From: a virus
DNA length: 64,000 bases
IMG/VR virus record: IMGVR_UViG_3300047472_000281
Location: 6,334-70,333 of that record
Strand: one strand, 5' to 3'
In this document: positions 18,532 to 51,110 of the stretch, piece by piece
Layout: every line of letters begins with the position of its first letter
Numbering within the stretch: the stretch's first letter is position 1
The notes under the pieces: generated by a model
What the model was told of the DNA's origin: nothing
What the model saw: only the letters and a program-made list of their open reading frames with translations
The model's database searches: none
Program-made: the position numbers and the translations under genes

Positions 18532-18851
18532 AGCTCGATCGACCCTGTAGCCGCGGCCTCCCCCAGGTATCCGGACGGTTCTGTCCCCGGATCGCCAACC
18601 AGCCCCGGACGGCCGAGGGTCACCTGGCCCTCGATATCGGCGACCGCCCGGGCAATTGGGCCCGCGCGGGCCAGCTGGCCAGCATCGTCGGCCTCAACTG
18701 GTCGGCGGTGGTCGGCCTGATCCCATCGGCCGCCGACAGGGAGAAGATCGAGCACCTGCTGAAGGCCTATGAAACCGGCCTGATCTCGGGCGCGGCCAAG
18801 GCGGCCAGGGCGGCGCAGGACAAGGCCGACAAGGTCAAGGAACAGCAATGA
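18462..18851 (+). CDS. Tail assembly chaperone -1 frameshift extension (gpGT-like)
   Basis: GGGAAAC at 18462-18468 opens into the -1 frame ORF (KRLRRLAEW...CRRC...CPR) ending 18851. Confidence 0.75.
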   Translation, partial: GKRLRRLAEWEHGEGGDWCRRCVKLDRPCSRGLPQVSGRFCPRIANQPRTAEGHLALDIGDRPGNWARAGQLASIVGLNWSAVVGLIPSAADREKIEHLLKAYETGLISGAAKAARAAQDKADKVKEQQ

Positions 18852-37498: not shown

Positions 37499-38100
37499 CC
37501 AAGGTCTTCTTCTGCGAAGAAACGCCTCACATCGAGGTGTTCCTGCGCCGCTTCGTCTTCAGCAAGGGCGACGGTGGGTGTTCCCACGACGCGTCCAGCA
37601 AGACACCGCTCGGCCGCTTCGAGTGGCCAGTGCGCAGCTATCTCGACGGCGACGTCATGGACGTCGATCGCGGCCACGCGCTGTGGCCGGTCGCCTGCGA
37701 CGCCTGCGGCTACCTCTTCCAGCCGACCGACGAGTGGCAGGCCTATCAGTGCAGGGTCATGCGCAGGATCGACACCGGCGAGGAACTGCCCGTTACCCGC
37801 CATCTGAGCAGTCTCCCGCCTGGCGCGGTCTTCGAATGCTGGTGGTCGGGCCGAGTCGGCGCCGACGGTCGATCCCTGGCGGTGGTCACACCTGGCGGGG
37901 AGTGGATGATCGACAGCCGCGCCTCCAACTGCACCAAGCCCGATGACGACACGCATCGCTGCTGGGTGCGGCACGGGCGGCCGGAAGATGGTGACCTGCA
38001 CGTCGACAAGGCGGGGCTGACCTGCGAGGCGGGCGCCGGCTCAATCATCGCCGGCGACTTCCACGGCTTCCTGCACCACGGCGAACTGAGGCCATGCTGA
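37495..38100 (+). CDS. Cys/His-rich hypothetical protein
   Basis: CDACGY, RASNC, HRCW, FHGFL motifs. Confidence 0.75.
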   Translation: MTKVFFCEETPHIEVFLRRFVFSKGDGGCSHDASSKTPLGRFEWPVRSYLDGDVMDVDRGHALWPVACDACGYLFQPTDEWQAYQCRVMRRIDTGEELPVTRHLSSLPPGAVFECWWSGRVGADGRSLAVVTPGGEWMIDSRASNCTKPDDDTHRCWVRHGRPEDGDLHVDKAGLTCEAGAGSIIAGDFHGFLHHGELRPC

Positions 38101-38210
38101 TGAAACAGGATGAACCTGGCCTTGTCGTGCCGATCGTCCTGATCCTGATCTGTGTGATCGGCGCCGTCTGCCTGGCTTCGGGCCTGCCTCTCGGGAGCAC
38201 ATGGGTATGA
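38100..38210 (+). CDS. 36-aa single-TM peptide (not in ORF track)
   Basis: TGATG and ATGA coupling; MKQDEPGLVVPIVLILICVIGAVCLASGLPLGSTWV. Confidence 0.5.
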   Translation: MKQDEPGLVVPIVLILICVIGAVCLASGLPLGSTWV

Positions 38211-38668
38211 ACCTGCCCGACCTCACACCGACCGGACAGATCCGCAAGGTCGGCAAGCTGATCGCGATCGCCGTGGCGGTGGTCATCAGCATCATCGGCG
38301 CGCTGGTTGTGATGAAGTTCGTCGGCGATCCGTTCGGCTTCGGTAAGCGCAAGACCGAGACCGCCCAGGCCACCGCCACCGTCAATGGCCAGCAGGCCGC
38401 CAGCAACGCCGCTGGAGCGGCCATCAATGACAATCGGGCTGGCAACGTCGCCCGGCTCGATAGAACCGCCCAGGAGGGCCAAAATGCGATCTGGCGTGCG
38501 GATGATCTCGACGCTGCTTATGGCAGCTACCTCGCTCACCTTGAGTGCCTGCGCGACCAGGGTCGTGCCCCTGTCGCCGTTCGTGCAGCTGACGACCGGG
38601 GACCGGACGCCGGCGCCGAACCCGACGGCGCCTGCGAGGCCGACGCTGCGGCCAGCGACCAGCCCTGA
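38207..38668 (+). CDS. i-spanin (Rz-like)
   Basis: N-terminal TM then helical periplasmic region; overlapped by lipoprotein ORF. Confidence 0.7.
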   Translation: MNLPDLTPTGQIRKVGKLIAIAVAVVISIIGALVVMKFVGDPFGFGKRKTETAQATATVNGQQAASNAAGAAINDNRAGNVARLDRTAQEGQNAIWRADDLDAAYGSYLAHLECLRDQGRAPVAVRAADDRGPDAGAEPDGACEADAAASDQP

Positions 38669-38858
38669 GGCCAGGGAAGAGCGCGACTATCTGATGGCGG
38701 TGGTGATCAAGCCGCTGATGGCCTTCAGTCTGCTCCAGGAGCGCGCCAAGCAGGCCGAGGGCCAGCGGGCCGACGGCGTGGTCGCCAAGGTAGACGCCTT
38801 CAATACGGCGGTCGAGCGCAAGCGGCGCTGGCTACCCTGGGCGCGCGACAAGCCCTGA
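38484..38858 (+). CDS. o-spanin (Rz1-like lipoprotein); start approximate
   Basis: Lipobox LSAC followed by Pro-rich segment; overlaps i-spanin in another frame. Confidence 0.7.
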   Translation: MRSGVRMISTLLMAATSLTLSACATRVVPLSPFVQLTTGDRTPAPNPTAPARPTLRPATSPEAREERDYLMAVVIKPLMAFSLLQERAKQAEGQRADGVVAKVDAFNTAVERKRRWLPWARDKP

Positions 38859-38885
38859 CCATATTGCTGACGTCAAGAACATGGT

Positions 38886-38917
38886 GCGCCCCTGGCTTCG
38901 GCCGGGGGCGCTTTTTT
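38886..38917 (+). terminator. Rho-independent terminator of late operon
   Basis: GCGCCCCTGGC-TTCG-GCCGGGGGCGC then TTTTTT at the convergence point. Confidence 0.85.
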
Positions 38918-38933
38918 GATTCCTGGGCGGTGG

Positions 38934-39251
38934 TTATCGCCTGACCCGGCCGGCTTGCGCCGCCGGCCGGCGGCTGCGGATATCATGCAGAAGCGAACGT
39001 CGGTGGCGAGCGGCGGCCGAACTTGCGAGGAATCGGCGCAACCAAGCATGCCCATTGCGCGTGATCGTGCAGGTACCCGTCCATTTGATGTCGGCCGTGG
39101 TGAAGTCCGCCTCGTCCTTGAGCGGATCCACATAGGCGTGGCGGGCTGGCCAGGTCAGGCTTGGGAACGTCAAGTCGACGGAGACCACTTCCACCCGCTC
39201 GCCGTTCACCGTCATGAGCGACCAAGAACCCGCCTGAACGGCGCCGGTCAT
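38934..39251 (-). CDS. Hypothetical protein
   Basis: ATGA coupling with upstream minus-strand gene. Confidence 0.55.
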   Translation of the reverse strand: MTGAVQAGSWSLMTVNGERVEVVSVDLTFPSLTWPARHAYVDPLKDEADFTTADIKWTGTCTITRNGHAWLRRFLASSAAARHRRSLLHDIRSRRPAAQAGRVRR

Positions 39252-39808
39252 AGGTCGCCGCCGCGCGGCCGCATGGCGAGGCGGGTCACGTTGGGGTCGT
39301 CGACTACCTTTAAGGCTTCACGCAGATAGGGCGTGTCGGCGGCGCGCCACCGGCCGGCCGCTTCGAACTCGTCCTGCAAGGCCATGTTCTTCTTGGCCCA
39401 GTCGATCGCTATCTCGGTCTTGCCGACCGAGGCGGGCTTGTGGATGACGACGATCTCGCCATCAGCCATCCAGCGGTCCAGACCCCAGAGGCCAGTTCCG
39501 CCGGGCGTGCCCTCGAACCGCCAGCCACGGCCCTCGCCGAGGGGCGTCCTTCGCTCCATCCAGTGCTCGCCGAGTCCCCTGACACGATCGGGGTAGAGGC
39601 ATTCCTTGGCGTCCAGGATCTTCATCCCAAGGCAGGTTCGCGCTCCGTCAGCGTCCCGCCCGAGCGCGGCGGGGTAATCCACGCCGATTTCGTTGACCTC
39701 TGCGCCGGTCAGCCAGACATAGTACGGGCGCTCCTGACCGCCCTCATCGGCCGCGGCGAGCAGTCGGCGGGTGTCCAATTCGGCCAGAAGCTGCTTCAGA
39801 ATGCTCAT
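39248..39808 (-). CDS. Hypothetical protein carrying terminase GpA-like motifs
   Basis: VVIHKPASVGKTE and GRWRAADTPYLREALKVVDDP. Confidence 0.6.
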   Translation of the reverse strand: MSILKQLLAELDTRRLLAAADEGGQERPYYVWLTGAEVNEIGVDYPAALGRDADGARTCLGMKILDAKECLYPDRVRGLGEHWMERRTPLGEGRGWRFEGTPGGTGLWGLDRWMADGEIVVIHKPASVGKTEIAIDWAKKNMALQDEFEAAGRWRAADTPYLREALKVVDDPNVTRLAMRPRGGDL

Positions 39809-40086
39809 GGCAGGCGCCCCGGAGGTCTCGGGACAGGGCGAACGCCCGTTGAGCCCTGGATGATGGCGTCGAGATCATGCTGGACGGCGGCCAGGCCACG
39901 CTGAAGGTGGTAGGCTAGGTCGCTACCGTCAGTCCCGTCGAGCTGCCGCCATGTGGTCATGAAGTTGAACTCACGGTCGGCGTTCTCGATGTGGATCGCG
40001 ATACCCTCAGGAAGGACGATGAGGGTGGTTGGGAATCGCGCCTTATCAGCCATCTCGGCCGCCGCTCGTAGCTGCAGGGTCCACAT
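39805..40086 (-). CDS. Hypothetical protein
   Basis: GGAGG SD; coupled. Confidence 0.6.
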   Translation of the reverse strand: MWTLQLRAAAEMADKARFPTTLIVLPEGIAIHIENADREFNFMTTWRQLDGTDGSDLAYHLQRGLAAVQHDLDAIIQGSTGVRPVPRPPGRLP

Positions 40087-40487
40087 CAGATCTCACCTCC
40101 AACAAAGGTCTCGTACAAGGCTAGCCGGGTGCGCTGGAGTTCCAGGGTTTGGTAGCCCTTCGCCGCGTCATCGTAGCTCTGGTTCAGGTCGATGATGGGC
40201 ATTGGAAAGCTGGACGCGCGAGCTTCGGCCAGATCAATAGGATCTCCCTCGCCCACGCCGACGATGGGCGGCGACAGGCGGGGATCGTATCCCAAGGCCT
40301 TGACCCAGCGGGCGCGCTCGCGATCCATCTGGCGCAGCGCTCGTATGGCCGGCGAGCCATAGATCCGCTCGAACACCTCGCGCGGGATGTGGTGCAGACG
40401 TCCGGTATGGCGGCTGATGTAGAAGTTCGCCGACGGCCGCCGCCAATACTTGCTCTTCACCCGGTGGTTGGCGGTGCGGAGACGCAT
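40086..40487 (-). CDS. Hypothetical protein
   Basis: TGATG coupling on both sides. Confidence 0.6.
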   Translation of the reverse strand: MRLRTANHRVKSKYWRRPSANFYISRHTGRLHHIPREVFERIYGSPAIRALRQMDRERARWVKALGYDPRLSPPIVGVGEGDPIDLAEARASSFPMPIIDLNQSYDDAAKGYQTLELQRTRLALYETFVGGEI

Positions 40488-40720
40488 CAGTCCGGCTCCC
40501 CGATGCCCAGCAGCCCGCGAAGGCTCGCCTGGATTTCATGCCGGCCCAAGCGCCGGGCCATGCTCATGGCCTTCGCAGCGGTGTTGGCCGAGGCCTCGTC
40601 GTCGAAGGTGATGCCGCCGAAAGGGCCAAGCTTGTCGCTAAGCCAGATCGTCCAGCGCTTGCCGTTGGGCTTGACGAAGAAGTCGTCGGCGATGGTGTCG
40701 TAGTGGACGAGCGCGACCAT
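40487..40720 (-). CDS. Hypothetical protein
   Basis: TGATG coupling. Confidence 0.6.
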   Translation of the reverse strand: MVALVHYDTIADDFFVKPNGKRWTIWLSDKLGPFGGITFDDEASANTAAKAMSMARRLGRHEIQASLRGLLGIGEPD

Positions 40721-40962
40721 CAGGCTTTCTCCGCTCGGACTTCGGCGATCATCGCCGAGAAAGCATCGGCCAGAATGCCAGGGCGGGGCTGGCCGGCCAT
40801 CGCCAACGCAAACTCGCGGAGCCCGGCCCTGACCATCGCTATATCGCGATCCTGCAGCGTGAATAGGAAGTCATCGACCAACTCGGCAGGAGTCTTGGCG
40901 CGCGCCATACCCTCGGCCGCAACTTCGAGCAGTCTTTCGCGCATTGTCTGTGGGTGAGCCAT
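40720..40962 (-). CDS. Hypothetical protein
   Basis: ATG at 40962 coupled to upstream stop. Confidence 0.55.
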   Translation of the reverse strand: MAHPQTMRERLLEVAAEGMARAKTPAELVDDFLFTLQDRDIAMVRAGLREFALAMAGQPRPGILADAFSAMIAEVRAEKA

Positions 40963-41483
40963 CAGACGGGCTCCCGGTCCATGACGACCGTGACGTCGTG
41001 GTTGTCGGTCCACAGCCAGCAGGCTGCGCGGGTGATGGCGGCGTCGACGACGGCGAAGAAGAAGCCCACGCCAGGATCGTTCAGCACGTCCAGCTGCTCG
41101 GGCTCGAGGCGCAGGCCATGATCGGGGAGGCGGAGCAGCTTCAGGATATGCCGCTCGCCCAGCGGCCGGCGGATCGGCGCCGACAGGCCGTCAGGATCCG
41201 CGCGGCGGGCCGCCAGCGCCTCTTCCTGCAGTTCCTTGGCCAGAGCCTCGACGGCCGTCTCGATCGACCACAGGGCGTCGCGCAGGGGATTGGGATAGCC
41301 GATCTTGGCTGAGCGCTCCCAGGACACCACGATGCTGTTGGTGGTCTCGCCGCGGCCGGCGTTGATCGCGTTGGCCAGGGCGGAGATGTGCCGGCGCTCC
41401 AGATTGATCGCGGTGCGCATCCCCCGGCTCTCTGGGCCGGTCAGGGGGCGGTCTCGGTGGCCGAACAGGGCGCGGGAGGTCAT
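40962..41483 (-). CDS. Hypothetical protein (repeat-array gene)
   Basis: Preceded by repeat copy with AAGGAAC SD. Confidence 0.7.
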   Translation of the reverse strand: MTSRALFGHRDRPLTGPESRGMRTAINLERRHISALANAINAGRGETTNSIVVSWERSAKIGYPNPLRDALWSIETAVEALAKELQEEALAARRADPDGLSAPIRRPLGERHILKLLRLPDHGLRLEPEQLDVLNDPGVGFFFAVVDAAITRAACWLWTDNHDVTVVMDREPV

Positions 41484-41533
41484 GGGCGGTGGTTCCTTGG
41501 TGAGCCGTGCTCCTGCGCGGCGTGGTTGCGATA

Positions 41534-41884
41534 TCAGAGGCGGCGCTTGGCCAGGGCGAGTCGTTCCATCCGGACAGCTTCACACCACCATGCGGCGCCG
41601 AGGATCCGTGTCGAGGGCGGCTCTTCAAGCCAGGCCTCCACCTCCGCCTGGGCGCCGGCGGTGTCGCCGTAATCCCCCTGGATCTGGAGGAAGATCAGAT
41701 AGGCGTCCTCGACCAGCACATAGGCCAGGGCCTTAGACCCGTTCGACGCGGCGATGCACGCCTGCAGAACGTCCAGATAGATCAGCGCGGCCTGCTGGGT
41801 GTTCAGGCCCATGGTCAGGGCGAGCTTGGCGATGCGCTCGTCGGTCGCATCGTTCTCGGGCGTGGCCTGCGAGGGGTTCGGCAT
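41534..41884 (-). CDS. Hypothetical protein (repeat-array gene)
   Basis: AAGGAG SD, ATG 41884. Confidence 0.65.
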   Translation of the reverse strand: MPNPSQATPENDATDERIAKLALTMGLNTQQAALIYLDVLQACIAASNGSKALAYVLVEDAYLIFLQIQGDYGDTAGAQAEVEAWLEEPPSTRILGAAWWCEAVRMERLALAKRRL

Positions 41885-41999
41885 AACGGCTCCTTGGCCT
41901 AGCAGAGTAGCACCGAGGGCGGATTGGGCCATAGGCTTCGCAGCTGACCCTTTCGCGTTTTGCGTCCACCCTTCACGCTGAAAGGGTGGCCTGAAAGGG

Positions 42000-42146
42000 T
42001 CAGCCATGGGCGAGCACTCCAAAGCCTTGCCGGGCAAGGGCTAGTAGGGGGCGAAGGGTGGCCAATCCGGCGCCCGAATAGAGCGGTTTTCCAGCCGCTT
42101 TCGCGGCCGCTCGGGCGTCACGGATAAGGGTCGATTTGGAAGACAT
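42000..42146 (-). CDS. Small basic hypothetical protein (repeat-array gene)
   Basis: TAAGGAG SD, ATG 42146. Confidence 0.5.
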   Translation of the reverse strand: MSSKSTLIRDARAAAKAAGKPLYSGAGLATLRPLLALARQGFGVLAHG

Positions 42147-42174
42147 GGGCGTCGTCTCCTTAGGCGAGGGCCGA

Positions 42175-43092
42175 TTAGGCCGGAGGGTTGTTGGGAGGGG
42201 CGGTGTCGCTGAAGGGCAGGGGCGTCCAGCCGGCGAACCAGTCGTCGTCGAGACCACCAAGGCCGAAGGGCCCAGCGAGCCCCCAGCCCTCGTCAAGACC
42301 TTCATCAACACCGTCGGTGTCGATGCCTGGGTGACGGATCACGACCCAGAGGCCGCCAAAGCGATCGAGATCGGCGCGCCCGGGGATTTCCGGCTTGAAG
42401 CGGGCCAGGACCGGCGTCCTGTTCTTCAGGGCCTTCGACATCGGGCGCAGAGCGTCGAGCAGTGGACCTTCCCATGTTGCCCGGCCATGCTCGCGCATCT
42501 TCTCGTCGATTGCCAGGCGGCAGGACCGCAGAGCGTTGGGCTCGGAGTCCTGCAGGTCGACGTCCTGGTCGCCCAACATCAGGCGATTGACGTTGTGGTT
42601 CATGACCAAGCGCCAGCGATAGGTCGTGCCGTACTTGGCATTGAGCCGGATATTGGCCTCGTCCAAGTAGTCGAGGCGGGCCTTGTCGGCTTCCAGCGCC
42701 GCGCACCTAGCCTCGGCGGCGACGGCGCGTGCGACCTGCTCCTCGCAGCGCAGGGCCATGTCCTCGGCGTTTTGGCGCCACGTCATGGGCCAGAGAGGCC
42801 CACAGCCATTGGGGCAGGGCTCGGTCTTGTTGTCGCCAGCCGTGATCGCGCCCGACTGGGCGTGGAGCACGTTGCGGACCAGGACGAACGAGCACTTGGC
42901 GCACCGCATCATGCCGGGGACGACATCGGCTCTGGCCGCCGAGCTGTCGCCCGACAAGGCTTGGGCCGCAACCACTAGCAGCGAGGCCGTTTCCTGAGCG
43001 TAGGGCGTGGCGCCGATCACTTCGCCCCGCATGAAGCGGTCCGCTAGCTCCAAGAGGCGCGGCGTGGGGTCAACTGTTTGGGGGGAAGACAT
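42175..43092 (-). CDS. Mosaic hypothetical protein with CxxC...CPNGC Zn motif
   Basis: Repeat and SD upstream; CAKC, EPCPNGCGPLW, DKARLDYL. Confidence 0.75.
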   Translation of the reverse strand: MSSPQTVDPTPRLLELADRFMRGEVIGATPYAQETASLLVVAAQALSGDSSAARADVVPGMMRCAKCSFVLVRNVLHAQSGAITAGDNKTEPCPNGCGPLWPMTWRQNAEDMALRCEEQVARAVAAEARCAALEADKARLDYLDEANIRLNAKYGTTYRWRLVMNHNVNRLMLGDQDVDLQDSEPNALRSCRLAIDEKMREHGRATWEGPLLDALRPMSKALKNRTPVLARFKPEIPGRADLDRFGGLWVVIRHPGIDTDGVDEGLDEGWGLAGPFGLGGLDDDWFAGWTPLPFSDTAPPNNPPA

Positions 43093-43177
43093 GGCGGTGG
43101 TTCCTTCGTAAGCCGCGCCTCATGCGCGGGGCTGATTGGGCTGTAGGCTTCAGGTCGAGGCTGATTGGGCTGCAGGG

Positions 43178-43603
43178 TCAGGGCCAGCCGCTCTTCATCA
43201 TACGCCGGCCGGGCGGAAACGGCGGCTTGACCAGGGTCAGATCGATTTGCACCGTGTTGGCGGTTTCACGCCTGACGGCCGATCCCAGCGGCGCACCGGT
43301 CAGATTGTTGACGATGATCGCGGGCTGAGCGACGACTGCGCCCGACTCGATATCCTCGGTGCTCCAGCCGTTCGCAGCGGCCAGGGACCAGAGTGCAGCC
43401 ACCCGCCGCGCGGCTTGGACGCGCTCATCTTGCGTCAGCAGGTAGGAATAGGCAGTGGTGGCCAAACCGAGAAAGCGGCCACCGACCTTGATCCGAACGC
43501 TGCGCCACCGGTCCCATTTCGCCGGCTTGGCCGCTAGCGGCTCGTTGTCGCCGCCGCGCTTTCCGATGGTGTTCGCCTCTTCGATCGCAAAGGGTGTGAC
43601 CAT
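43178..43603 (-). CDS. Hypothetical protein (repeat-array gene)
   Basis: ATG 43603 after repeat SD. Confidence 0.65.
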   Translation of the reverse strand: MVTPFAIEEANTIGKRGGDNEPLAAKPAKWDRWRSVRIKVGGRFLGLATTAYSYLLTQDERVQAARRVAALWSLAAANGWSTEDIESGAVVAQPAIIVNNLTGAPLGSAVRRETANTVQIDLTLVKPPFPPGRRMMKSGWP

Positions 43604-43662
43604 GGCGGTTGGTTCCTTGTGTTGCCGCGCCACATGCGCGGGGGCTGATTGGGTCGCAGGGT

Positions 43663-44844
43663 TCAGGCGAGAGCGGGCTGGCGCGGCAGGACGTCGCCGT
43701 CGAACCACTCTAGGTGGGCCATGGCGGCGTCCTTCTTGGACTTCGCTGCCAGCAAGTCTTCAAACCGCTGGATCACGGCCTCGGGCGTTGGGAACGTGTT
43801 CTCCAGACCATGATGAGCCAGGATGATCTCGCGGGCCGCAACGACCTGCACCGCCTCGTCATAGGTTGGGGCGCGCAGAGGCCAGCCCTTCACGTACCGC
43901 AAGCCCTTGGGCAGACTGGCCTCGAGGGCTTGGCGTTCGGCGCCGCGCACCTTGCCGACGGCCAGGCCTGCCGCGAGGGCCGGTGAGATCAGGTGCGGCG
44001 ACACATCGCCTAGCCAGCGCGTGGGCTGAAAGCTGAAGGTCGAGTTTGCCTCGACGCCGACCAGGTGACGATAGACCGCGTGGTTGTCCTCGCTGCGCGA
44101 CGAGGCTTCCTGATCACGGACCTTTTGCAGCACGCAGTAGGAGCAGCCCAGGCGAGACGTCCCGTGAACGCTGTAGGCAACGTGAAGGGGCAGGGCGTGG
44201 CGTTCATGATAGGCGAACACTTCGCCCAGCAGAACCTCGGCCGCTGGATGCCAGGACATCAGCGTCGTTCCGTCGCGCTTGGACCAACGAGGCTCGGGCT
44301 TCGACACCGGCGCCAAGCTGCGCGCGGGGCTCTCTTCGCGCCGGATCCCGATGACAGAGATGATCACGCGGCCGGGGAAAGCCTTCTGGAGGGCGGGCGA
44401 AATCACCTGCTGCTTGAGCTCGGCCGTGCAGAAGCGGAGACTAGCGCTCGACCAGGGTCCAATCAGGTTGAACACCTCCAAGGCGGCGTACCGGCGTTTA
44501 CCCTCGGCGAAGCGGGCCTCCCAGCGCGAAATCATGTCGTGGCGGCCATGGCGAACCACCATCAGCGGAACGCCCAGCTGCTCGGCGATGCGCTCGCACA
44601 TCGGCAGGCTTTCCTTCCACTCGATCCTGCCCAGGTCGGCGTGGATTGCCACGCGGTCCTCTTTCGGGTGGCCCAGCATGTCCAGGAGCCGGTTCGCGGA
44701 ATGCGCGGCGACCGAGGAGTCCTTGCCACCGCTCAGGCTGAAGGCAACGACGGCACCGGCTCGGATGGCCGCCAGGACCTCGGTGTCGACCGCGATCCCG
44801 ACCTCGCGGAACATCTCGATCTCTTCGGCGGTGGTCATCGTCAT
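43663..44844 (-). CDS. Phosphoadenosine phosphosulfate reductase family protein (PP-loop)
   Basis: SLSGGKDS, RFCTAELK, GIRREES..R, SRLGCSYC; ATG 44844 after repeat SD. Confidence 0.88.
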   Translation of the reverse strand: MTMTTAEEIEMFREVGIAVDTEVLAAIRAGAVVAFSLSGGKDSSVAAHSANRLLDMLGHPKEDRVAIHADLGRIEWKESLPMCERIAEQLGVPLMVVRHGRHDMISRWEARFAEGKRRYAALEVFNLIGPWSSASLRFCTAELKQQVISPALQKAFPGRVIISVIGIRREESPARSLAPVSKPEPRWSKRDGTTLMSWHPAAEVLLGEVFAYHERHALPLHVAYSVHGTSRLGCSYCVLQKVRDQEASSRSEDNHAVYRHLVGVEANSTFSFQPTRWLGDVSPHLISPALAAGLAVGKVRGAERQALEASLPKGLRYVKGWPLRAPTYDEAVQVVAAREIILAHHGLENTFPTPEAVIQRFEDLLAAKSKKDAAMAHLEWFDGDVLPRQPALA

Positions 44845-44899
44845 AGGGTCGTTCCTTGCTGGCCCGCGCCACATGCGCGGGCTGATTGATCTGGTGGGT

Positions 44900-45133
44900 C
44901 TACTGGCAGGCGACGTCGATGCTGGAGCGCAGCTCTTCGAAGTGGCCGGGCAGATCGTCCTGCAGGGTGGTGATCGCGTCCTGCATCTTGATTCCGCTGT
45001 CGGCGCCCTGAAGGCTCTCAGGGAGGTTTTCGAACGCGGCCTGTTCAGCGGCGAGCACCTCTTCGACAAGGGTCTCGGCCTGATTGATCAGCTCGGCGGC
45101 TTGCTGGAGCATCTTGCGGCGGTCGTTGTTCAT
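44900..45133 (-). CDS. Small acidic helical phage protein
   Basis: MNNDRRK...EQAAFENLPESLQ; ATG 45133 after repeat SD. Confidence 0.75.
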   Translation of the reverse strand: MNNDRRKMLQQAAELINQAETLVEEVLAAEQAAFENLPESLQGADSGIKMQDAITTLQDDLPGHFEELRSSIDVACQ

Positions 45134-45186
45134 GGCTTCGTTCCTTGGTGACCCACGCCATGCGCGGGCTGATTGAGCTTTAGGGC

Positions 45187-45984
45187 TTAGGCGGCCAGGT
45201 CGCGGCGCACCCCGATGAAGACTGCACCACGCGGCGCGCCATCCCTGGTCTTGCCGCAAAGCCGCACCGTGCCCAGTCGGCCGGGCAGATTGCCCCGTTG
45301 GGTCCAGAGCGACGCGGCCTGAGCGCGCGGCATGGCGACCGGCGCCGAGAACAGGCGCCCGGCATACTCAAGGGTGACAGACCCGACAGCGTCTGGATCG
45401 TCCAGCCGAGCGCGAACAGACCTGATAACGCCCTCTAGCTCGCCGGTCGGCTTCAGCTTGACCGCCTCGCAACGCGTGGAAGAGGCGTTGCCCTCGCGAT
45501 AACCCCACGTCCCGGCCTTCAGAACCAAGCCCTCGCCATTGCGGGCGACCACCTCGGCGAACGCCTCGTTGACGCTCTCAAGGGAGCGATGACAGAGGGC
45601 GGGCGACACCTGGACGACATCTTGAGCGCCAAGGGACGCCACAGCCTGCCGCACCTTCGCCAGACGATCCACAAAGGCCATGGAAGAGCCGGCCAGGTCG
45701 AAAACCATGAAGCGCCAGCCAGAGGGGAGAGCACCCGAACCCATGAAGGCGGATTGCGCGGCCTCAAAGCCGCCGGGGGCGGTCAGTTCGCCATGGTGAC
45801 CCCACAGAGCGCGCTGGGAGAGGAAGGCGCGGGCCTCCGGATTGGGAAGGGGAAGGCCCTCTTTCGTATGCAGGCCCATAGAGGGGCAGACCAGGCCGCC
45901 GACTCCATCGTGCTTTTCCTGCGACCAGCAAGGGAAGGGGAGGCGGGAGAGATCGGCCGTAACCGGGTGCATCGGCTTGAGCAT
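45187..45984 (-). CDS. Minimal ATP-dependent DNA ligase-like protein
   Basis: EKHDG, HGEL, FMVFDL, EGLVLK, KLKP motifs plus OB-like tail. Confidence 0.82.
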   Translation of the reverse strand: MLKPMHPVTADLSRLPFPCWSQEKHDGVGGLVCPSMGLHTKEGLPLPNPEARAFLSQRALWGHHGELTAPGGFEAAQSAFMGSGALPSGWRFMVFDLAGSSMAFVDRLAKVRQAVASLGAQDVVQVSPALCHRSLESVNEAFAEVVARNGEGLVLKAGTWGYREGNASSTRCEAVKLKPTGELEGVIRSVRARLDDPDAVGSVTLEYAGRLFSAPVAMPRAQAASLWTQRGNLPGRLGTVRLCGKTRDGAPRGAVFIGVRRDLAA

Positions 45985-46055
45985 GGCGGGCGTTCCTTGG
46001 TGACCCGCGCCACATGCGCGGGAGAGGCTGATTAAGGGGGCGGGTTAGGCGGTGG

Positions 46056-46391
46056 TCAATCTTCCTCGTGTTCTTCTTGGGCGGTGGTTTCGTCATCGCC
46101 CTCCGGCTGCTCTATCCCGGCGTCTTCGTGCGACACGAACACCCACGCCATGACATAACCGCCATCACTGCCCTCGGACACGATCGCGTCGCCGTCGACT
46201 TCGACTTCGCCTTCGCTGAGAAAGCCGGTGTTGCCGGCGCCATCCGCATAGGCGGACAGGTGCGGTTCGGTCTGGCGCTGATGCTCAGCGAAGACGGGAA
46301 CGGCGCGCCCGAAATTCAGGCCGGCTTCAATCAGCGCCAGTAATTGGTCTTCTAAGCTCGGGGCGGTGGTGCTCTGGACGGTCGCGGACAT
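46056..46391 (-). CDS. Highly acidic hypothetical protein
   Basis: EGEVEVDGDAIVSEGSDGGYVMAWVFV; acidic tail; ATG 46391 after repeat SD. Confidence 0.75.
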   Translation of the reverse strand: MSATVQSTTAPSLEDQLLALIEAGLNFGRAVPVFAEHQRQTEPHLSAYADGAGNTGFLSEGEVEVDGDAIVSEGSDGGYVMAWVFVSHEDAGIEQPEGDDETTAQEEHEED

Positions 46392-46443
46392 GGTTGCGTT
46401 CCTTGAAGGCCCACGCCACATGCGCGGGGCTGGCCATACAGGC

Positions 46444-46842
46444 CTAGAGCTGTTCCGAAGGGAAATTCGGCGTTTCGTTCGAAGCGAGGGCGGCTTGCAA
46501 CTGCTCCACGAGAGCCTTGTTGTCCTCGGTGTTTTCGTAGGTCCCGTCGGCGATGCCGGATTCAAGGTCTTCCAGGTAGGACTGCGCAGCGTCGCTAAGG
46601 CGGTCGAGGACCGAACGCCGGACCAGAACGAACGGGTCTGACGGTATGGCGGGCGGATCGTACTGCGACACCGACCCGCCGGTAACCTTCATGATGTTCC
46701 GCCCACGCTTGCGAAGGCAAATCTCGTTTCCGAGTTCACCAGCATGCTCGAAGTTGTAGGCCTCGACGTCGCCGCTCCAAGCGCCGGGGTTGCCGGCGTT
46801 CGTGCAGTAGAGAACCTCAACATGATATCGGCCTTTGGGCAT
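46444..46842 (-). CDS. Hypothetical protein (repeat-array gene)
   Basis: ATG 46842 after repeat SD. Confidence 0.7.
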   Translation of the reverse strand: MPKGRYHVEVLYCTNAGNPGAWSGDVEAYNFEHAGELGNEICLRKRGRNIMKVTGGSVSQYDPPAIPSDPFVLVRRSVLDRLSDAAQSYLEDLESGIADGTYENTEDNKALVEQLQAALASNETPNFPSEQL

Positions 46843-46922
46843 GGTCTCGTTCCTTGCTGGCCCGCGCCACATGCGAGGGCTGATTGGCTCATATGGTCGC
46901 CGGGCTGATTGGCCTGGCGGGT

Positions 46923-48116
46923 CTAGGCGGCCAGACGCAGCGCCACGGCTCGCGGGGCGTCCAGCGTGACGCAGGTCCCGTCACTCGCGGTGAGGCGGAA
47001 GGCGAAGCCCCCGGCCAGGCGCCGGGCGGTGTAGCGGACTAGGCCGCCCTCCGGCGCCGTGGCGTGGCGCTCGACCAGCAACAGCAAGGCGCGGGCCTTG
47101 TGCTTCGCCTCGGTCGATGCGCGTTCGAAGGCCGCGACGATTCCCGCCAGATCGAAGACGACGGCCGCTCCGTCGAGGTCATGCATGTTGGTCGGCGCCG
47201 TGGCTCCAGGAACGGCCGTCGCTTTGGCGACGATGACGGGCGGAAGTTCGAACGCTGCGACAGCGGCCGCACGGCGCGACGCCAGAAAATCGCATGCGCC
47301 GTCCGCGACGCGCAGATGGCCTGAGCCGTCCATTTCATAGGCGATGCCGGGGCTATGGGCTCGGCCTCGGAAGATGCGCCCGCCTTGGGCGGAAATCTCC
47401 GCCTCGCGCCAAAACAGGCGCGGCGGGACGATTCGGGCTTCGAGATTGGCCGCCTCATTGGCGTCGCCGGCGCCGTAGCGGCCGCCAGGGGGCGGCGTGA
47501 ACGTCTCGCCGGTGTTCTCGTCATAGATCGCCAACAGAGCGGCCATCGGACGCACACGGGCGAGGTGTTGCCAATCGGGCGAGTCGGCCATCACGCCACA
47601 CGACGTGCGAACCTGCATGGCGCGCAGCTCCACCCCGGCCATGGCCTCCAGCTGTCGGGCATACTCATGGCGAGCGCGGAGGCGGCGCAGCGTGTCGCCA
47701 GCCGCTAGGGCGGCCGCCCAGCGGGTCTGGGGCTTCCCGCCGTGATAGACGACGCCACAGACGCGGGTCGCCGTGCCATCGGCCCAGACGCACCAGAACG
47801 CGCCGGTGGCGGCCTTGTTGCGGGGAGGGCGGGAAAACAGCGCGGCTAAGTCATCCTCGACCCTCTCAGCCCGCGCCGTGCGCTTCTTGGCGGCTACGGG
47901 AGCGGCTTGCTCGCTGGGAGCGCCAAGGGCGGCCGAAAGAGGCGCGGAGGGGCGCAAGGTCGCACCGATGATGATTTGCCGCTGCAGGGCGCGGGCCAAG
48001 GCGTGCGCGGCGGCTTCATAGGCCGAGGCGGCGCCGGAAGTGCGCGCCAGGTCATAGAGCGCCAGGGCGGCTTGGGGGGAGGTGGCGCCCAGAGGGGCGG
48101 CTAGGGTGGCGATCAT
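46923..48116 (-). CDS. Ala-rich hypothetical protein (repeat-array gene)
   Basis: 397-aa ORF directly after repeat copy at 48123. Confidence 0.7.
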   Translation of the reverse strand: MIATLAAPLGATSPQAALALYDLARTSGAASAYEAAAHALARALQRQIIIGATLRPSAPLSAALGAPSEQAAPVAAKKRTARAERVEDDLAALFSRPPRNKAATGAFWCVWADGTATRVCGVVYHGGKPQTRWAAALAAGDTLRRLRARHEYARQLEAMAGVELRAMQVRTSCGVMADSPDWQHLARVRPMAALLAIYDENTGETFTPPPGGRYGAGDANEAANLEARIVPPRLFWREAEISAQGGRIFRGRAHSPGIAYEMDGSGHLRVADGACDFLASRRAAAVAAFELPPVIVAKATAVPGATAPTNMHDLDGAAVVFDLAGIVAAFERASTEAKHKARALLLLVERHATAPEGGLVRYTARRLAGGFAFRLTASDGTCVTLDAPRAVALRLAA

Positions 48117-48204
48117 TGGTCAGTTCCGTTTCAGGCCACGCCGCATGCGTGGCGGTTAGAACGTCGAGCCGTTCGGCGAGGCCCTGCAGCGCTAGGCGGA
48201 AAGG

Positions 48205-48594
48205 CTAGTTCAGGGCGGGCGGGTTCATGGGCCAAGTGGACCAATCTCCCGCGTCGCCGCTTTTGGCGTTGTCTCGGTCCTGCCAGGCGCGGGCGGCGTC
48301 CTCAGTAGGGAAGGGGCCAATCACAGGCGTCAGCAGTTCGGGTCTGAAGACAACCCAACCAGCGGCGGCTTCTTGGAACACAAACACATATCCCTTGATG
48401 GTCTCGCCGCCGACCAGCTCGCCCGGGCCGCAATAGCGCTCAGCGAGGGCTTTGGCCGCGGCCATGTGATTAGCGCTCTGCGAAAGGTTGTGATCGTAGG
48501 GCACAACGACGCGGCTATCCTGCTGGCGCGCCACGATGCGCGCGCTCTTGGTATTCGTCGCACCTAAAAAGCTGGTCTCAATCGCTGATCGCAT
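48205..48594 (-). CDS. Hypothetical phage protein, first gene of repeat array
   Basis: AIETSFLGATNTKSARI...NHMAAAKALA...KGYVFVF; ATG 48594 after repeat SD. Confidence 0.75.
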   Translation of the reverse strand: MRSAIETSFLGATNTKSARIVARQQDSRVVVPYDHNLSQSANHMAAAKALAERYCGPGELVGGETIKGYVFVFQEAAAGWVVFRPELLTPVIGPFPTEDAARAWQDRDNAKSGDAGDWSTWPMNPPALN

Positions 48595-48742
48595 TTGGTC
48601 GTTCCTTGCTGAACCACGCCGCATGCGTGGTCGGGATGTTGGCGCCATCCTGACTTCTCCGAGTTGGTGAGGTCAGAACCTCGAGCCTTTCATGATGCGC
48701 CTCGACCAAATGCGAGACGTCCAGGACGGCGCCGACAGCCGA

Positions 48743-48770
48743 AACATAGGCGCGGGCGATGCTGCGTCAA
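48743..48770 (-). promoter_or_regulatory. Predicted sigma70-type promoter of the repeat array
   Basis: Minus-strand TTGACG-16 nt-TATGTT with A/T-rich upstream and near-inverted repeat TGCTGCG...CGTAGCA. Confidence 0.6.
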
Positions 48771-49001
48771 CAAGAAAATGCAGTGCGTAGCAAGTATTCA
48801 ACAGCTCAGGCTCCGGGCGCTGACGCGATAGCGCCCGGTAATGCAGTAACCGTCTGGTCACGCGGCGGGTCCTTCCTGCCGGGAATGAATATGCGGGGAA
48901 AAGACCCGCCGGTCTAAACTGAAAAATATTTAGAAACGATGGTGTAGTGTAGGGTGGATATTGTCGCGGAAAAATCCGGCGGCGCGGCGTCGTCGCCCTT
49001 G

Positions 49002-49039
49002 TGGAATATTCCAATGCGGCATATATTCCAGTCTGGAAT
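49002..49039. promoter_or_regulatory. Palindromic operator-like sites before XRE gene
   Basis: TGGAATATTCCA (49002-49013) and ATTCCAGTCTGGAAT (49025-49039). Confidence 0.6.
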
Positions 49040-49061
49040 TATCCAAGTTGGAGCAACGAAA

Positions 49062-49376
49062 ATGACCGACGTGAAGTATGAGGATTGGCGGCCGGCTCTG
49101 TCGCCTGAGGAGGAAGCCCAGGTCGCCGAAGGCGTAGTGGCGCTGAAGGCGCGTGTTTCCTTGCTGCGCACGCTGCGCGAGCGCATCGGTCTAACTCAGG
49201 CCGAATTGGCCGAAATCCTTGAGACCTCCCAGTCGAACGTCTCCAAGATCGAAGCAAAAGACGACCCATACGTCTCGACGCTCAGGAAAGTCATCGAGGC
49301 GAAGGGCGGAAAGCTGAAGGTGATCGCGACCTTCCCTGAGGGCGACATCGAGATTCCACTGTTCTTGTCGGTTTAG
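49062..49376 (+). CDS. XRE-family HTH protein (HigA antitoxin-like)
   Basis: LRTLRERIGLTQAELAEILETSQSNVSKIE...STLRKVIEAKGGKLKVIATFP. Confidence 0.85.
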   Translation: MTDVKYEDWRPALSPEEEAQVAEGVVALKARVSLLRTLRERIGLTQAELAEILETSQSNVSKIEAKDDPYVSTLRKVIEAKGGKLKVIATFPEGDIEIPLFLSV

Positions 49377-49382
49377 CCGGCG

Positions 49383-49649
49383 CTATCGGCGCCTACGCAG
49401 CGGCCGGGTCGGCGTGCCTGGCGATGGGCCGTAGTGAAAGATGACCTTGTGCCCGCAGCCTGGCGTGGGGCAGGTCGGGCTGCGATCGGACAGGTCGAAG
49501 CCCTCGCCGTATTTGGCGATGATCGCGTCGAGATCCACCGGCCGGAAGAACTGGCACTTTGCGCACATGACGTTGACGACGGCGGTCGACGCCTTGAGCG
49601 CGCCGACCGATTGCGCCCAGGTTGGCAGGTAGGCGGGGTTCTTTCCCAT
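49383..49649 (-). CDS. Small Zn-finger protein, likely SOS-regulated
   Basis: CAKC...CPTPGC; GGAG SD before ATG 49649; LexA box upstream. Confidence 0.7.
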   Translation of the reverse strand: MGKNPAYLPTWAQSVGALKASTAVVNVMCAKCQFFRPVDLDAIIAKYGEGFDLSDRSPTCPTPGCGHKVIFHYGPSPGTPTRPLRRRR

Positions 49650-49662
49650 GGTCAGCTCCAGC

Positions 49663-49677
49663 GAACGGAGCCGGAAC
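49663..49677. promoter_or_regulatory. Alphaproteobacterial LexA (SOS) box
   Basis: GAAC-GGAGCCG-GAAC, i.e. GTTC-N7-GTTC on the minus strand. Confidence 0.7.
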
Positions 49678-49681
49678 ATTA

Positions 49682-49931
49682 TTCGGGACTATTCCGGGAC
49701 TTCTAGTCCCGAACCACCCCTTTTTTCGCCATTTGTTCCCACTTTCGACCACGTTTGAAGTGGCCGTTTTTGGGAGAAAAGTGTAGTGAAAACAAAGAGA
49801 AAGGTGGTGCCGGATGAGGGGATTGAACCCCCGACCTTCGGTTTACAAAACCGCGCTGTGAAGTGGCGCAAAGCCAGGCTCAATAAGGTGTTGAAGGCTG
49901 CGGTCTCGGAGTGGTTCGGGAGTATTCCGGG
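49682..49931. other. attP: core is 3' half of tRNA-Thr(UGU) (49805-49854, minus strand) flanked by arm-type repeats
   Basis: Minus strand GCGGTTTTGTAAACCGAAGGTCGGGGGTTCAATCCCCTCATCCGGCACCA; TTCGGGASTATTCCGGG at 49682 and 49915; directly downstream of integrase. Confidence 0.9.
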
Positions 49932-49976
49932 GAAGTCTGCAAGCGCGGCGGGCCCAAAAAGGACCTCGGTGGGGCC

Positions 49977-51110
49977 TTAGCCCGTCGCCTGGCCGTCGTC
50001 GACCACCTGGGCGGCCGCTACCGGAGCCGCAACGACTTCGTCTTCCAGGGCCGAGCGGAGATCGCTGGAGAGCACGTGCGCGTAGCGCTGCGAACTCTGG
50101 ATCGTGGCGTGGCCCAGGAGCGCCTGGACGGCCTTCAGGTTCTTGGTGCGCTTCAGAACGGTCGAGCCGGCGTGGTGGCGCGCGCCGTGGATGCGTCGGG
50201 CGCCGGTGAGCCCCGCGGCGTCCGCCGCCTTGCTGACGCGGTATTCGATCTGGTTGTACGTGTAGCAGACCAGCTTCTTGCCCTGCTGGTGGAACCACAG
50301 GTGTTCGAGGCCGGCCTCGACGGCGCAGGAGTGGCGGGCGGCCAGGGCGCGGCCGTGGTCCAGGCGAAGGGGAATGACCAGCAGGACGTCGCGCTTGCGG
50401 CCCTTCTGCAGGGTCAGCGTCGGATCCTCGGGGTCGAGGTTCAGCGCCGAGGGCGGGAACAGCAGCTCGCCCAGGCGCAGGCCATAGGTCAGCAGCATGT
50501 CGACCGCGAGCGCCATGTCTTCCTCGGCCGCGGCGATCCATCCTGTCCGCTCGGCCGGACTGTAGAGCCGGCTCAGGCCGCGCGGCTCCCGCAGACGCAG
50601 GACGCGCCAGTCGATATCGGGCAGGCCATGCGGGGTCTCGGCCGGCGTCCAGTGCGTTCTGGCGCGGCGGAGGATCGGCCGGAGGGTTTCGATGACGTCC
50701 CGGTTCACGGTCGAGTTTGACGGCTGATAGACCAGCGCGTCGTCGGCATGGCCGCGCTTCAGCGTCTGTTTCTTCCGGTCTTCGATCGCGGTGGCGACGA
50801 TGTCCTGGCCGATCGAGCCCAGTGTTTTGTTCTTGCCGATCAGCGCCACCAGGTTGTGAACCCTGCGCTCGACATCGCGATTGTCGCCGCGATGGATGCC
50901 GACCTCTTCCCACCAACGGCCGGCGGCTATGTCCAAGGTCATCAGCGAGACCGCGCCCAACTGGCCGGTGGCGGCCGCCATGCGCTTCTTGGTCTCTACG
51001 GCCTCGGCTGCACGACGCGTAGCCTGACCGGTCGATCCATGAAACCGCGTCCCGCCGATGACGAAGTCGTACTGCCAGAAGCGGCTTTTGGTCGGTTTGT
51101 AGACGGACAC
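49977..51110 (-). CDS. Tyrosine integrase
   Basis: GLRLGE, HGARH, LGH, RYAH catalytic residues; N-terminal arm-binding region. Confidence 0.95.
   Translation of the reverse strand: MSVYKPTKSRFWQYDFVIGGTRFHGSTGQATRRAAEAVETKKRMAAATGQLGAVSLMTLDIAAGRWWEEVGIHRGDNRDVERRVHNLVALIGKNKTLGSIGQDIVATAIEDRKKQTLKRGHADDALVYQPSNSTVNRDVIETLRPILRRARTHWTPAETPHGLPDIDWRVLRLREPRGLSRLYSPAERTGWIAAAEEDMALAVDMLLTYGLRLGELLFPPSALNLDPEDPTLTLQKGRKRDVLLVIPLRLDHGRALAARHSCAVEAGLEHLWFHQQGKKLVCYTYNQIEYRVSKAADAAGLTGARRIHGARHHAGSTVLKRTKNLKAVQALLGHATIQSSQRYAHVLSSDLRSALEDEVVAAPVAAAQVVDDGQATG

Follow-up and report, generated by a model that had tools for sequence, protein, structure and literature searches.

Results of our analysis indicate that twelve consecutive minus-strand genes in a 64,000-nucleotide stretch of viral DNA (bases 6334-70333 of the 70,333-bp virus record IMGVR_UViG_3300047472_000281 of IMG/VR, a record with direct terminal repeats; this whole stretch is hereafter called the window) are each preceded by a copy of one repeated linker, composed of a C-rich box, a short GC hairpin and a Shine-Dalgarno (SD) sequence. 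The same architecture, with different genes between the units, is present in three other virus records and in one named Caulobacter genome. We would put at about even the chance that this linker is a module for intercistronic expression at RNA level and that its repetition also drives the exchange of one open reading frame (ORF) for another by homologous recombination.

What is conserved is everything between the stop codon of the upstream gene and the next ATG, a gap that in the tabulation of all gaps is 50-88 nt long. Directly after the stop codon lies a C-rich unit of ~23 nt, (A)CCCTnCAG-nCCAATC(A/C/T)GCC, either single or doubled with a period of ~23 nt (doubled in two linkers of the window and in seven linkers of two relatives), and in several linkers the stop codon itself is embedded in the box (TAATCCGCC type). 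The box or boxes are followed by a GC stem of 6-8 bp, mostly of 7 bp, with the loop ATGYG or a variant of 3-6 nt, then, 5-7 nt after the stem, by the near-invariant AAGGAAC, and 7-9 nt further by the ATG. In eight measured segments preceding the hairpin, C accounts for 43% and G for 19% of the nucleotides (105 and 47 of 245 nt), as compared with 34.6% C and 31.6% G in the whole strand.

The confinement of the element to this gene array was assessed with a covariance model, R1, built from 26 copies, of which 10 are from the window and 16 from two relatives; its matches to its own training copies hold by construction, and the non-matches are the informative part. In the window R1 matched 11 times at E<=1, exclusively on the minus strand, and ten of these matches had E<=1.1e-5. 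In the whole 70,333-bp genome it gave 13, namely ten strong matches (E<=7e-6), two weak ones within the array (at window positions 42144, E 0.018, and 41882, E 0.84), and outside the array a single partial, chance-level match on the plus strand (E 0.93). Apart from the latter, no copy on the opposite strand was found by R1 in the whole genome, and a trans-acting antisense RNA was rejected as the function of the repeat. Motif counts agree with the model: all seven exact matches to CAATCAGCC lie at 43130-46911 on the minus strand, and all six matches to the hairpin core with no more than one mismatch lie inside the array on the same strand, while with up to three mismatches the 15 matches found are no excess over the 12.9 expected by chance. 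The copies together span 41481-48645 on the minus strand. The SD variant CAAGGAAC is not exclusive to the array: it occurs 13 times (1.3 expected), eight times within leaders and four times outside the array, three of these on the plus strand. Two of the outside occurrences, at 1153-1160 and 18836-18843 (plus strand), are located just upstream of ORFs starting at 1165 and 18848, and look like ordinary SD sequences because they are placed at plus-strand gene starts.

Much of a preliminary description of this stretch, made from the letters alone, is borne out by these results. The twelve starts that it listed were recovered both by reading the minus strand and by a regular expression for SD and ATG, and its count of ten clear and two degenerate copies, with none elsewhere in the window, agrees with R1 and with the motif counts. 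The genes concerned are indeed unrelated, comprising a phosphoadenosine phosphosulfate (PAPS)-reductase-like gene (PF01507, E 5.8e-10) and an ATP-dependent DNA ligase gene (phrog_114, E 5e-32), with the remainder either belonging to no family or matching solely PHROGs of unknown function. The statement that genes elsewhere are coupled holds for those downstream of 40962, which are TGATG-coupled and devoid of the element. The repeat as then described needs to be extended: the motif AATCAGCC is present, but is only a part of the longer stop-to-start unit with its boxes.

The evidence that the hairpin is formed comes from covariation among the copies. In the MAFFT alignment A4, 93.3% of 180 cells pair, as compared with 87.1 +/- 1.2 after shuffling (a value reached by none of 500 shuffles), the covariation score is 0.171 vs. 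0.069 for the shuffles (0/500), and both sides are changed in 10 cells where 2.8 would be expected. When, as a control, the 3' partner was slid by 1-3 columns, pairing fell to 35-75% of cells. For instance, the fourth pair is GC in 14 copies, AU in four, GU in two and CG in one. The copy at L007 8329 (in one of the related virus records) has an extra base in both arms with pairing kept, loop length varies from 3 to 6 nt among the copies, and the stem preceding the orthologous 173-aa gene differs in sequence in each of four phages with pairing retained. Compensatory changes, the compensated insertion and the variable loops together point to a folded single strand, and the latter two argue against a double-stranded palindromic operator. 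Judging by these patterns, the folded strand is most likely that of the mRNA.

The linker is also tied to translation start. Minimum free energy (MFE) folds contain the hairpin in all ten clear copies and leave most of the SD and AUG unpaired; the mean unpaired probability at -16..+3 is 0.60, as compared with 0.38 +/- 0.12 at 200 random positions of the same strand. In a more distant record, L086, where the homologue of the 173-aa protein is 44% identical, the layout is alike while the letters are different: three tandem 25-nt boxes are present and, further on, a 7-bp stem of another sequence with a 6-nt loop, followed 8 nt later by GGAG, and this arrangement of stem and GGAG precedes both the 397-aa and the 173-aa homologues. 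The distance from hairpin to GGA is 7-8 nt in the window and in L086 alike, with differing SD letters. A joint action of hairpin and SD is best supported by the architecture and the hairpin-to-SD spacing, both of which are kept while the sequence drifts. In the same record, four close GGAACCGT copies lie at 3225-3290, just upstream of the hairpin of the 173-aa homologue; from their position they may be an internal promoter or operator.

The genes between the linkers turn over from phage to phage. Ten genes separate the conserved 397-aa and 173-aa genes in the window, 12 in L007 (relative A) and about eight in L008 (relative B), while in L086 there are none, only the three tandem boxes. An all-against-all BLASTP comparison of the array proteins revealed a backbone common to the relatives (the 397-aa gene, the C-terminal domain of the 111-aa gene, the ligase, the 48-aa and the 173-aa genes), a 116-aa gene common to the window and L007 only, and 132-, 77-, 141- and 305-aa genes unique to the window. 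L007 carries instead four genes of 91, 89, 150 and 141 aa, one of 465 aa (DUF4942 plus a methyltransferase domain) and a Dam-like one of 260 aa, and L008 has the PAPS-reductase-like gene in common with the window and, in addition, a DUF5983 gene. The cargo of the relatives at L007 7547-9814 and L008 5646-6182 (DUF4942 with methyltransferase, Dam-like N6-adenine methyltransferase and DUF5983), taken together with the ligase and the PAPS-reductase-like gene of the window, suggests a possible theme of DNA modification, DNA repair and anti-restriction.

The preliminary description had presented the repeat as a possible recombination handle by which single-gene cassettes are gained, lost and shuffled. 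Turnover at the linkers was indeed found, while a link to site-specific recombination was not. The relatives do not keep the same genes without the repeat; they keep the repeat, with gene content that differs from cassette to cassette. Neither do the breakpoints ignore the repeats: of the 18 points at which orthologous blastn blocks end, 10 are no more than 10 nt away from a linker, as compared with 2.55 expected (none of 5000 random draws reached 10). The ligase block, for instance, comprises the gene and both flanking linkers and ends 5 nt beyond the next ATG. At three positions orthologous linkers with private variants in common (the loop ATGAG, the spacer GAAGCC) are followed by unrelated ORFs (46842/a12829, 45133/a11044 and 43092/a7490). 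The ORF a11044, which equals b7313, precedes the ligase gene in L008 and follows it in L007, and in L008 the ligase gene no longer has a leader of its own, being coupled to the gene before it (TGACTATG). In L007 four linkers in a row, around cassettes that the window lacks, show 88-97% identity over all columns, while orthologous DNA of the window and L007 is 75-83% identical, which indicates a recent spread or gene conversion of the linkers. Since leaders stay while ORFs change, a crossover anywhere in the homologous linker fits these observations better than a fixed cut site. In one DNA run, stored as contigs, which hide rare forms, a single identical contig, possibly the source of this DNA, without joints or variants in the array was found. 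A group of small acidic proteins at one position of the array (window 46056-46391, L007 11986-12483 and L008 7523-8005) share their C-terminal ~90 aa at 36-65% identity and have unrelated N-terminal halves, which places an exchange joint inside the gene.

As for the distribution of the element, a scan of virus records with the exact pattern detected arrays in L007 (6 pattern matches) and L008 (5); three further single matches scored only E 0.09-0.14 with R1. The window has 10 strong R1 copies, L007 has 11, L008 has 6 and the named Caulobacter genome adds 2, and in all four genomes they are co-oriented with the genes and end at ATG. In the 5.4-Mb Caulobacter genome, where 150 of ~8062 first-look candidates were scored, all 8 R1 matches lie in one prophage of ~69 kb, bounded by a 25-bp direct repeat identical to the 3' end of a tRNA-Leu(tag) gene. 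The virus record that covers this prophage has its boundary inside the array. The relative searches are samples, and absence means 'not found in those searched'. Searches with the alignments A5 and A6 returned the same three virus records each time. The pattern scan of genome contigs gave 28 stretches, with several copies only on a contig of Caulobacter sp. Root343, and that of metagenome contigs 37 stretches with one match each; R1, run over 63 other loci from the contig scans, gave five weak or partial matches (24.9-27.7 bits) and no arrays. Among 151 genomes of the host family R1 found the element in one, the already known one, and among 401 genomes of the order A5 found the 173-aa homologue in two, the known one and one with a weak partial match. 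No match was obtained in 50,697 phage records, either by megablast with the array or by tblastn with the 397-aa and 173-aa proteins. A search for related loci with a single 173-aa protein gave 27 pattern matches, none of which was confirmed.

The explanation that we favour, an expression module that also serves in ORF exchange, may be outlined as follows. The linker would be a modular intercistronic unit of the early-left accessory operon in a small group of temperate Caulobacter-type siphophages, and this operon is probably read as one message from the promoter-like site upstream of its first gene. The one or two C-rich, G-poor boxes would remain unstructured, while the stable GC hairpin would lock GC-rich upstream sequence in the mRNA, so that initiation at every ORF, however unrelated, would take place in one and the same accessible setting, with AAGGAAC and the start codon lying in open, A-rich sequence. 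The hairpin probably doubles as a handle for one common factor or nuclease, for translational control or for protection of the 5' end after cleavage in the box. Since the same ~60 nt flank every ORF, recombination between linkers is possible; such homologous recombination, within a genome or between co-infecting relatives, would swap, delete or insert ORFs precisely between ATG and stop codon, with a hyperplastic cassette array as the outcome.

Several points weigh against this explanation. The element is carried by four genomes only. In a fixed register, the 182 stem cells comprise 165 Watson-Crick pairs, three G.U and two C.A pairs, ten other mismatches (two of them alignment artefacts) and two gaps; in four copies the central part of the stem contains a mismatch, and the folding energies of single copies are no better than those of shuffles (z -2.1 to +0.95). 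The strand asymmetry, three G.U vs. two C.A, is too weak to separate RNA from a folded DNA strand. AAGGAAC pairs with the tail of Caulobacter 16S rRNA only over AAGGA, so the conserved trailing AC is not explained by SD pairing, and the invariant AC and the conserved boxes exceed what simple insulation would need, which hints at a partner. The enrichment of block ends at linkers is confounded, as mosaic joints of phages favour gene borders and linkers align with each other; moreover, one joint lies within the PAPS-reductase-like gene, 62 nt before its end, and some lie inside the 111-aa gene family. Of the earlier suggestion that the repeat is an RNA element bound or cleaved by one factor, the folded hairpin is supported, while a factor that binds or cleaves it was not found. 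What the data show is the anatomy of the linker, its conservation and structural covariation, the turnover of the cassettes and the homogenisation of the linkers; we infer the action at RNA level, the effect on translation, any factor involved and recombination as the mechanism of turnover.

A more far-reaching possibility, which we regard as rather unlikely, is that of a plug-and-play cassette standard: one dedicated phage or host factor would read box and hairpin, as RNA or as a folded DNA strand, and control or process every cistron, and the unit would allow these phages to capture any ORF exactly between stop and start without a dedicated recombinase. If true, it would be an integron-like but recombinase-independent array for DNA-modification, DNA-repair and anti-defence cargo. 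In a reading at the level of double-stranded DNA, the box, the palindrome or both would be multi-copy sites for a phage repressor or other regulator, whose binding would keep the accessory operon silent in the lysogen or set its timing; such sites would be similar to the stoperators of cluster A mycobacteriophages or to what was proposed for ESAS. The intergenic boxes are asymmetric and oriented and stand one to three in tandem with a period of 23-25 nt, like protein-binding iterons, two helix-turn-helix (HTH) regulators are encoded by the phage, the asymmetry between G.U and C.A is weak, and the authors who described the start-associated sequences of mycobacteriophages (SAS, with their extended form ESAS) preferred DNA-binding proteins for ESAS (PMC3203893). 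We nevertheless consider this reading unlikely, as a dimeric operator would keep its sequence and spacing, while here the loops span 3-6 nt, an insertion affects both arms and the orthologous stems change; the palindromes adjacent to the XRE-family gene, TGGAATATTCCA and TTCCAGACTGGAA, are unrelated to box or hairpin, and the fixed SD spacing would have no role. That RNA processing is the main function, with a host or phage endoribonuclease cutting in or next to the linkers to give monocistronic mRNAs with a protective 5' hairpin, seems quite unlikely to us, even though each junction between genes of this early operon has one element, as is the case in the early region of T7, the hairpin is predicted in all ten clear copies, and the sole A/U-containing single-stranded patch (AAUCAG) lies just 5' of the stem, so that a cut there leaves the stem 5'-terminal. 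A stem of 7 bp is too short for RNase III, the box is unlike the published preference of enterobacterial RNase E, and no nuclease gene was recognised among the array genes in family searches.

A module of transcription elongation appears distinctly improbable. The boxes would here be rut-like Rho loading sites and the hairpin a boxB-like antiterminator handle, gating distal cassettes, which would be expressed only under active antitermination or when the next cistron is translated. In lambda nutR/tR1, boxB lies between rutA and rutB. The C-rich, G-poor composition of the segments preceding the hairpin, the position of the box in the untranslated gap right after the stop codon, the small, boxB-like hairpin loop and the setting, an early-left operon in a temperate phage that has a divergent repressor-like gene, would all suit such a module. 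However, known processive antitermination relies on one or two nut sites in an operon rather than on a site for every gene, a box of ~20-45 nt is below the typical length of a rut region, and the fixed hairpin-to-SD spacing would be superfluous; no N-, Q- or Psu-like protein was recognised in family searches, N-like proteins being hard to detect. Least of all do we expect a site-specific cassette system, which we hold to be highly improbable and in which box or hairpin would be a recombinase site (attC-like, or REP/RAYT-like on single-stranded DNA) at which single-gene circles are excised and inserted. The tandem boxes of two window linkers and seven linkers of the relatives, the 'empty' three-box site of L086, the stop codons embedded in boxes and the tyrosine recombinase gene adjoining the array could be taken in its favour. 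They are countered by an integrase that scores far below the integron-integrase cut-off (30 vs. 265 bits), by the tRNA-Leu 3' end that forms the att core in the prophage relative and bears no relation to the box, by the absence of a Y1/RAYT transposase from the three phage records searched, by a stem of 7 bp, far under the hairpins of attC bottom strands, and by the lack of joints in the one DNA run, whose storage as contigs hides rare forms.

The phage to which the array belongs has a G+C content of ~66% in the window and encodes the large terminase, portal, a capsid-protease fusion and tail proteins on the plus strand. These genes, the tyrosine integrase and the two HTH regulators identify it as a temperate siphophage, and the equivalent array inside the prophage of Caulobacter sp. 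Root343 makes Caulobacter the probable host. Since no promoter-like or terminator-like site lies at any copy and the only promoter-like site precedes the first gene, the array is read as one operon, presumably controlled by the divergent XRE-type regulator; from its placement, the promoter-like site likely serves the whole array. Between the XRE-family gene and this site are the two perfect palindromes, TGGAATATTCCA and TTCCAGACTGGAA, at 49002-49013 and 49026-49038, which are likely operators, unrelated to the repeat. The integrase gene does adjoin the array, which the preliminary description had placed beside attP; attP itself was not located in the window. The coordinates of these features and of the individual copies are given in the table.

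Table. Linker copies and associated features (window positions, unless another record is named); bits and E are those of model R1 for linker copies and of family searches for genes
Feature	Position	Strand	Start codon of gene	Score and remarks
Twelve leader-served genes, array span	40962..48594	-		SD-ATG regular expression, minus-strand reading
Leader copy 1, before 129-aa gene	48592..48645	-	48594	50.7 bits, E 3.3e-9; hairpin ACCACGC/GCGTGGT (in MFE fold) and AAGGAAC; without canonical box
Leader copy 2, before 397-aa gene	48114..48177	-	48116	35 bits, E 1.1e-5; hairpin GCCACGC/GCGTGGC; SD variant ACGGAAC
Two-box linker before 132-aa gene	46840..46925	-	46842	65.7 bits; CCAATCAGCC boxes at 46902-46911 and 46877-46886; hairpin with one U.C mismatch; SD
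Leader before 111-aa acidic gene	46389..46450	-	46391	53.8 bits; one G.U pair in hairpin; box degenerate
Leader before ATP-dependent DNA ligase gene (265 aa)	45982..46058	-	45984	62.5 bits; box variant TAATCAGCC; 4-nt insert before hairpin, common to orthologous leader in L007
Leader before 77-aa gene	45131..45192	-	45133	67.7 bits; loop region 2 nt shorter, stem still in MFE fold
Leader before PAPS-reductase-like gene (393 aa), best copy	44842..44905	-	44844	73.6 bits; perfect 8-bp stem; -20.3 kcal/mol, z -2.1
Leader before 141-aa gene	43601..43668	-	43603	67.5 bits
Two-box linker before 305-aa gene	43090..43180	-	43092	69.1 bits; boxes at 43158-43167 and 43129-43138; hairpin loop ATGAG; SD
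Degenerate copy before 48-aa gene	42144..42194	-	42146	19.6 bits, E 0.029 (window search); stop codon inside box TAATCGGCC; without hairpin; SD is AAGGAG
Degenerate copy before 116-aa gene	41882..41943	-	41884	12.2 bits, E 0.84 (whole-genome search); box CCAATCCGCC, then a different weak stem and AAGGAG
Last leader, before conserved 173-aa gene	41481..41546	-	41483	48.6 bits; hairpin GCCGCGC-AGGA-GCACGGC, one C.A mismatch
Sigma-70-like promoter, TTGACG-16-TATGTT	48743..48770	-		Consensus match only; sole one in 38000-50000
XRE-family HTH gene, divergent from array	49062..49376	+		PF01381, E 9e-8
Tyrosine integrase gene, upstream of array	49977..51110	-		PF00589, E 5.6e-12
25-bp repeats flanking the prophage	L087 3656-3680 and L088 9312-9336			Caulobacter genome

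The spacer of 115 nt that separates the 48-aa gene from the 116-aa gene (window 41885-41999, minus strand; L007 6775-6892; L008 3548-3625) contains two direct and two inverted ACCCTTTC-type words that form nested stems, and in L008 these words change on both sides in step (CCC to CCG, GGG to CGG). Judging from this arrangement, the spacer may act as a structured RNA or else offer four binding sites in an array.

Repeats tied to start codons, SAS/ESAS and the promoter-early stem-loop (PeSL) cassettes of T4-like phages, have been known for more than 10 years with their mechanism unproven. The version found in Caulobacter phages is unusually clean, as it comprises a complete stop-to-start unit, a covarying hairpin and a variable number of C-rich boxes, and the four genomes frame different cargo with the same unit (ligase, PAPS-reductase-like, DUF4942 and Dam methyltransferases, DUF5983 and many unknowns). 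As one of the arrays is in a cultured, tractable genus, the questions of RNA vs. DNA, of a common factor and of ORF exchange are testable. If the proposed explanation is true, the linker is a natural case of standardised ribosome-binding-site insulation within an operon, and would help to explain the gene-by-gene turnover of early accessory and anti-defence genes of phages.

Comparison with known elements led to the rejection of a number of classes. None of the nine terminator-like sites in 38000-50000 lies in any copy, and the sequence after the stem is of CCAGCAAGG type, which is not that of an intrinsic terminator; the sole sigma-70 promoter match in this region lies upstream of the array. 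By eye, a sigma-54 promoter does not fit, with a GG-to-GC spacing of 9 instead of 10 and a GC that is unconserved across A4, and neither does a GGAAC -35 box of the extracytoplasmic function (ECF) type, which would lie 7-9 nt before the ATG with no conserved -10 element after it. A CRISPR repeat or any other Rfam family was rejected, as region 38500-49500 gave one match at E<=1, to an unrelated long non-coding RNA model below its gathering score, on the plus strand between two degenerate copies. For CsrA/RsmA sites, PF02599 was found in none of four records (three phages and the Caulobacter genome), while a control gave 3 of 14 well-known genomes. A Chi-like hotspot was rejected as well, CCAATCAGCC occurring 15 times in 5.4 Mb with two occurrences in the prophage, as was a secondary att site of the phage integrase: no stretch of >=12 nt of the tRNA-Leu 3' end that forms the prophage att core is present in the window. 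Repetitive extragenic palindromic (REP) elements with RAYT, which are spread in many copies over a host chromosome, are not consistent with the confinement of all 8 matches in the Caulobacter genome (150 of ~8062 first-look candidates scored) to the prophage array, and PF01797 was found in none of the three phage records.

Integrons resemble the array in having co-oriented, promoterless single-gene cassettes, a hairpin-forming repeat, an adjacent tyrosine recombinase gene and one promoter. However, the hairpin of the linker is far shorter than attC, the repeat carries the SD of the next gene, and the integrase is not IntI (30.3 bits vs. a cut-off of 265 for TIGR02249 and 23 vs. 435 for NF011946), and an integron was rejected. 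An attC site, with R''/L''-L'/R' boxes and a core of GTTRRRY/RYYYAAC type, is not matched by the linker either: its stem is of only 7 bp, and the GTT of the core, the part sought by inspection, is absent from nine of the ten clear window linkers, the exception being the one before 48116. The RNase III sites of the T7 early region are long irregular duplexes (~20 bp or more) cut by this enzyme; they are alike in that one structured element stands between successive early genes, and differ from the linker with its stem of 6-8 bp. Lambda nut/tR1 shares with the linker the order of a linear box and then a short, small-looped hairpin in C-rich RNA of a temperate-phage early operon, but lambda has one site per operon and not one per gene, there is no sequence similarity, and an N-like protein was not identified. 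The stoperators of cluster A mycobacteriophages are 13-bp repressor sites distributed over both genome arms and not tied to start codons. Like the linker, they belong to temperate phages and consist of a short asymmetric site that is repeated many times, oriented and between genes, while the linker copies are confined to one operon and tied to the SD.

SAS/ESAS, from cluster K mycobacteriophages, and the PeSL cassettes are the systems that the linker most resembles in kind, although it is a member of neither. No published description of the linker of Caulobacter phages was found in full-text literature searches, but to call it an undescribed system, as had been suggested, is too strong, because these two are close published analogues. 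Their naming as analogues in the preliminary description is upheld for likeness in kind and not for homology. PeSL combine a terminator stem-loop with an early promoter, which makes each ORF a transcription unit of its own (PMC4122927). Here, the single promoter-like site in 38000-50000 lies outside the copies, and a sigma-70 promoter with a terminator for each ORF was not found; the linker carries an SD and not a promoter, and the phage is temperate and of high G+C. PeSL are alike in being short, conserved composite motifs with a stem-loop that flank small variable ORFs in hyperplastic regions. Indels and replacements of close relatives are located at these motifs, as they are at the linkers according to the block ends and the cassette table, and recombination between motifs has been proposed in both cases.

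The SAS core consists of an SD and of invariant letters unable to pair with 16S rRNA, a puzzle noted by the authors, and an inverted repeat precedes about half of the SAS copies; the ESAS arms are 17 bp long, and pairing as RNA was not supported according to the authors (PMC3203893). According to a report of 2025, the function of SAS/ESAS is still unexplained (PMC12699233). The two systems are unrelated in sequence: the 13-bp SAS motif GGGATAGGAGCCC, which lies 3-8 bp before start codons in cluster K phages, gave three matches here, with two mismatches each, vs. 2.0 expected, none of them in the array. The linker differs from ESAS in its stem, which is of 7 bp and covaries, in that it alone has C-rich tandem boxes and starts at the upstream stop codon, and in its alphaproteobacterial host. 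The likeness is nevertheless considerable in kind, if not in homology. In both systems a repeat specific to the phage, absent from the host genome and restricted to the non-structural half of a temperate siphophage stands in a single orientation a few nt before the ATG of 11-19 unrelated genes, and in both it joins an SD core with invariant letters that do not pair with 16S rRNA.

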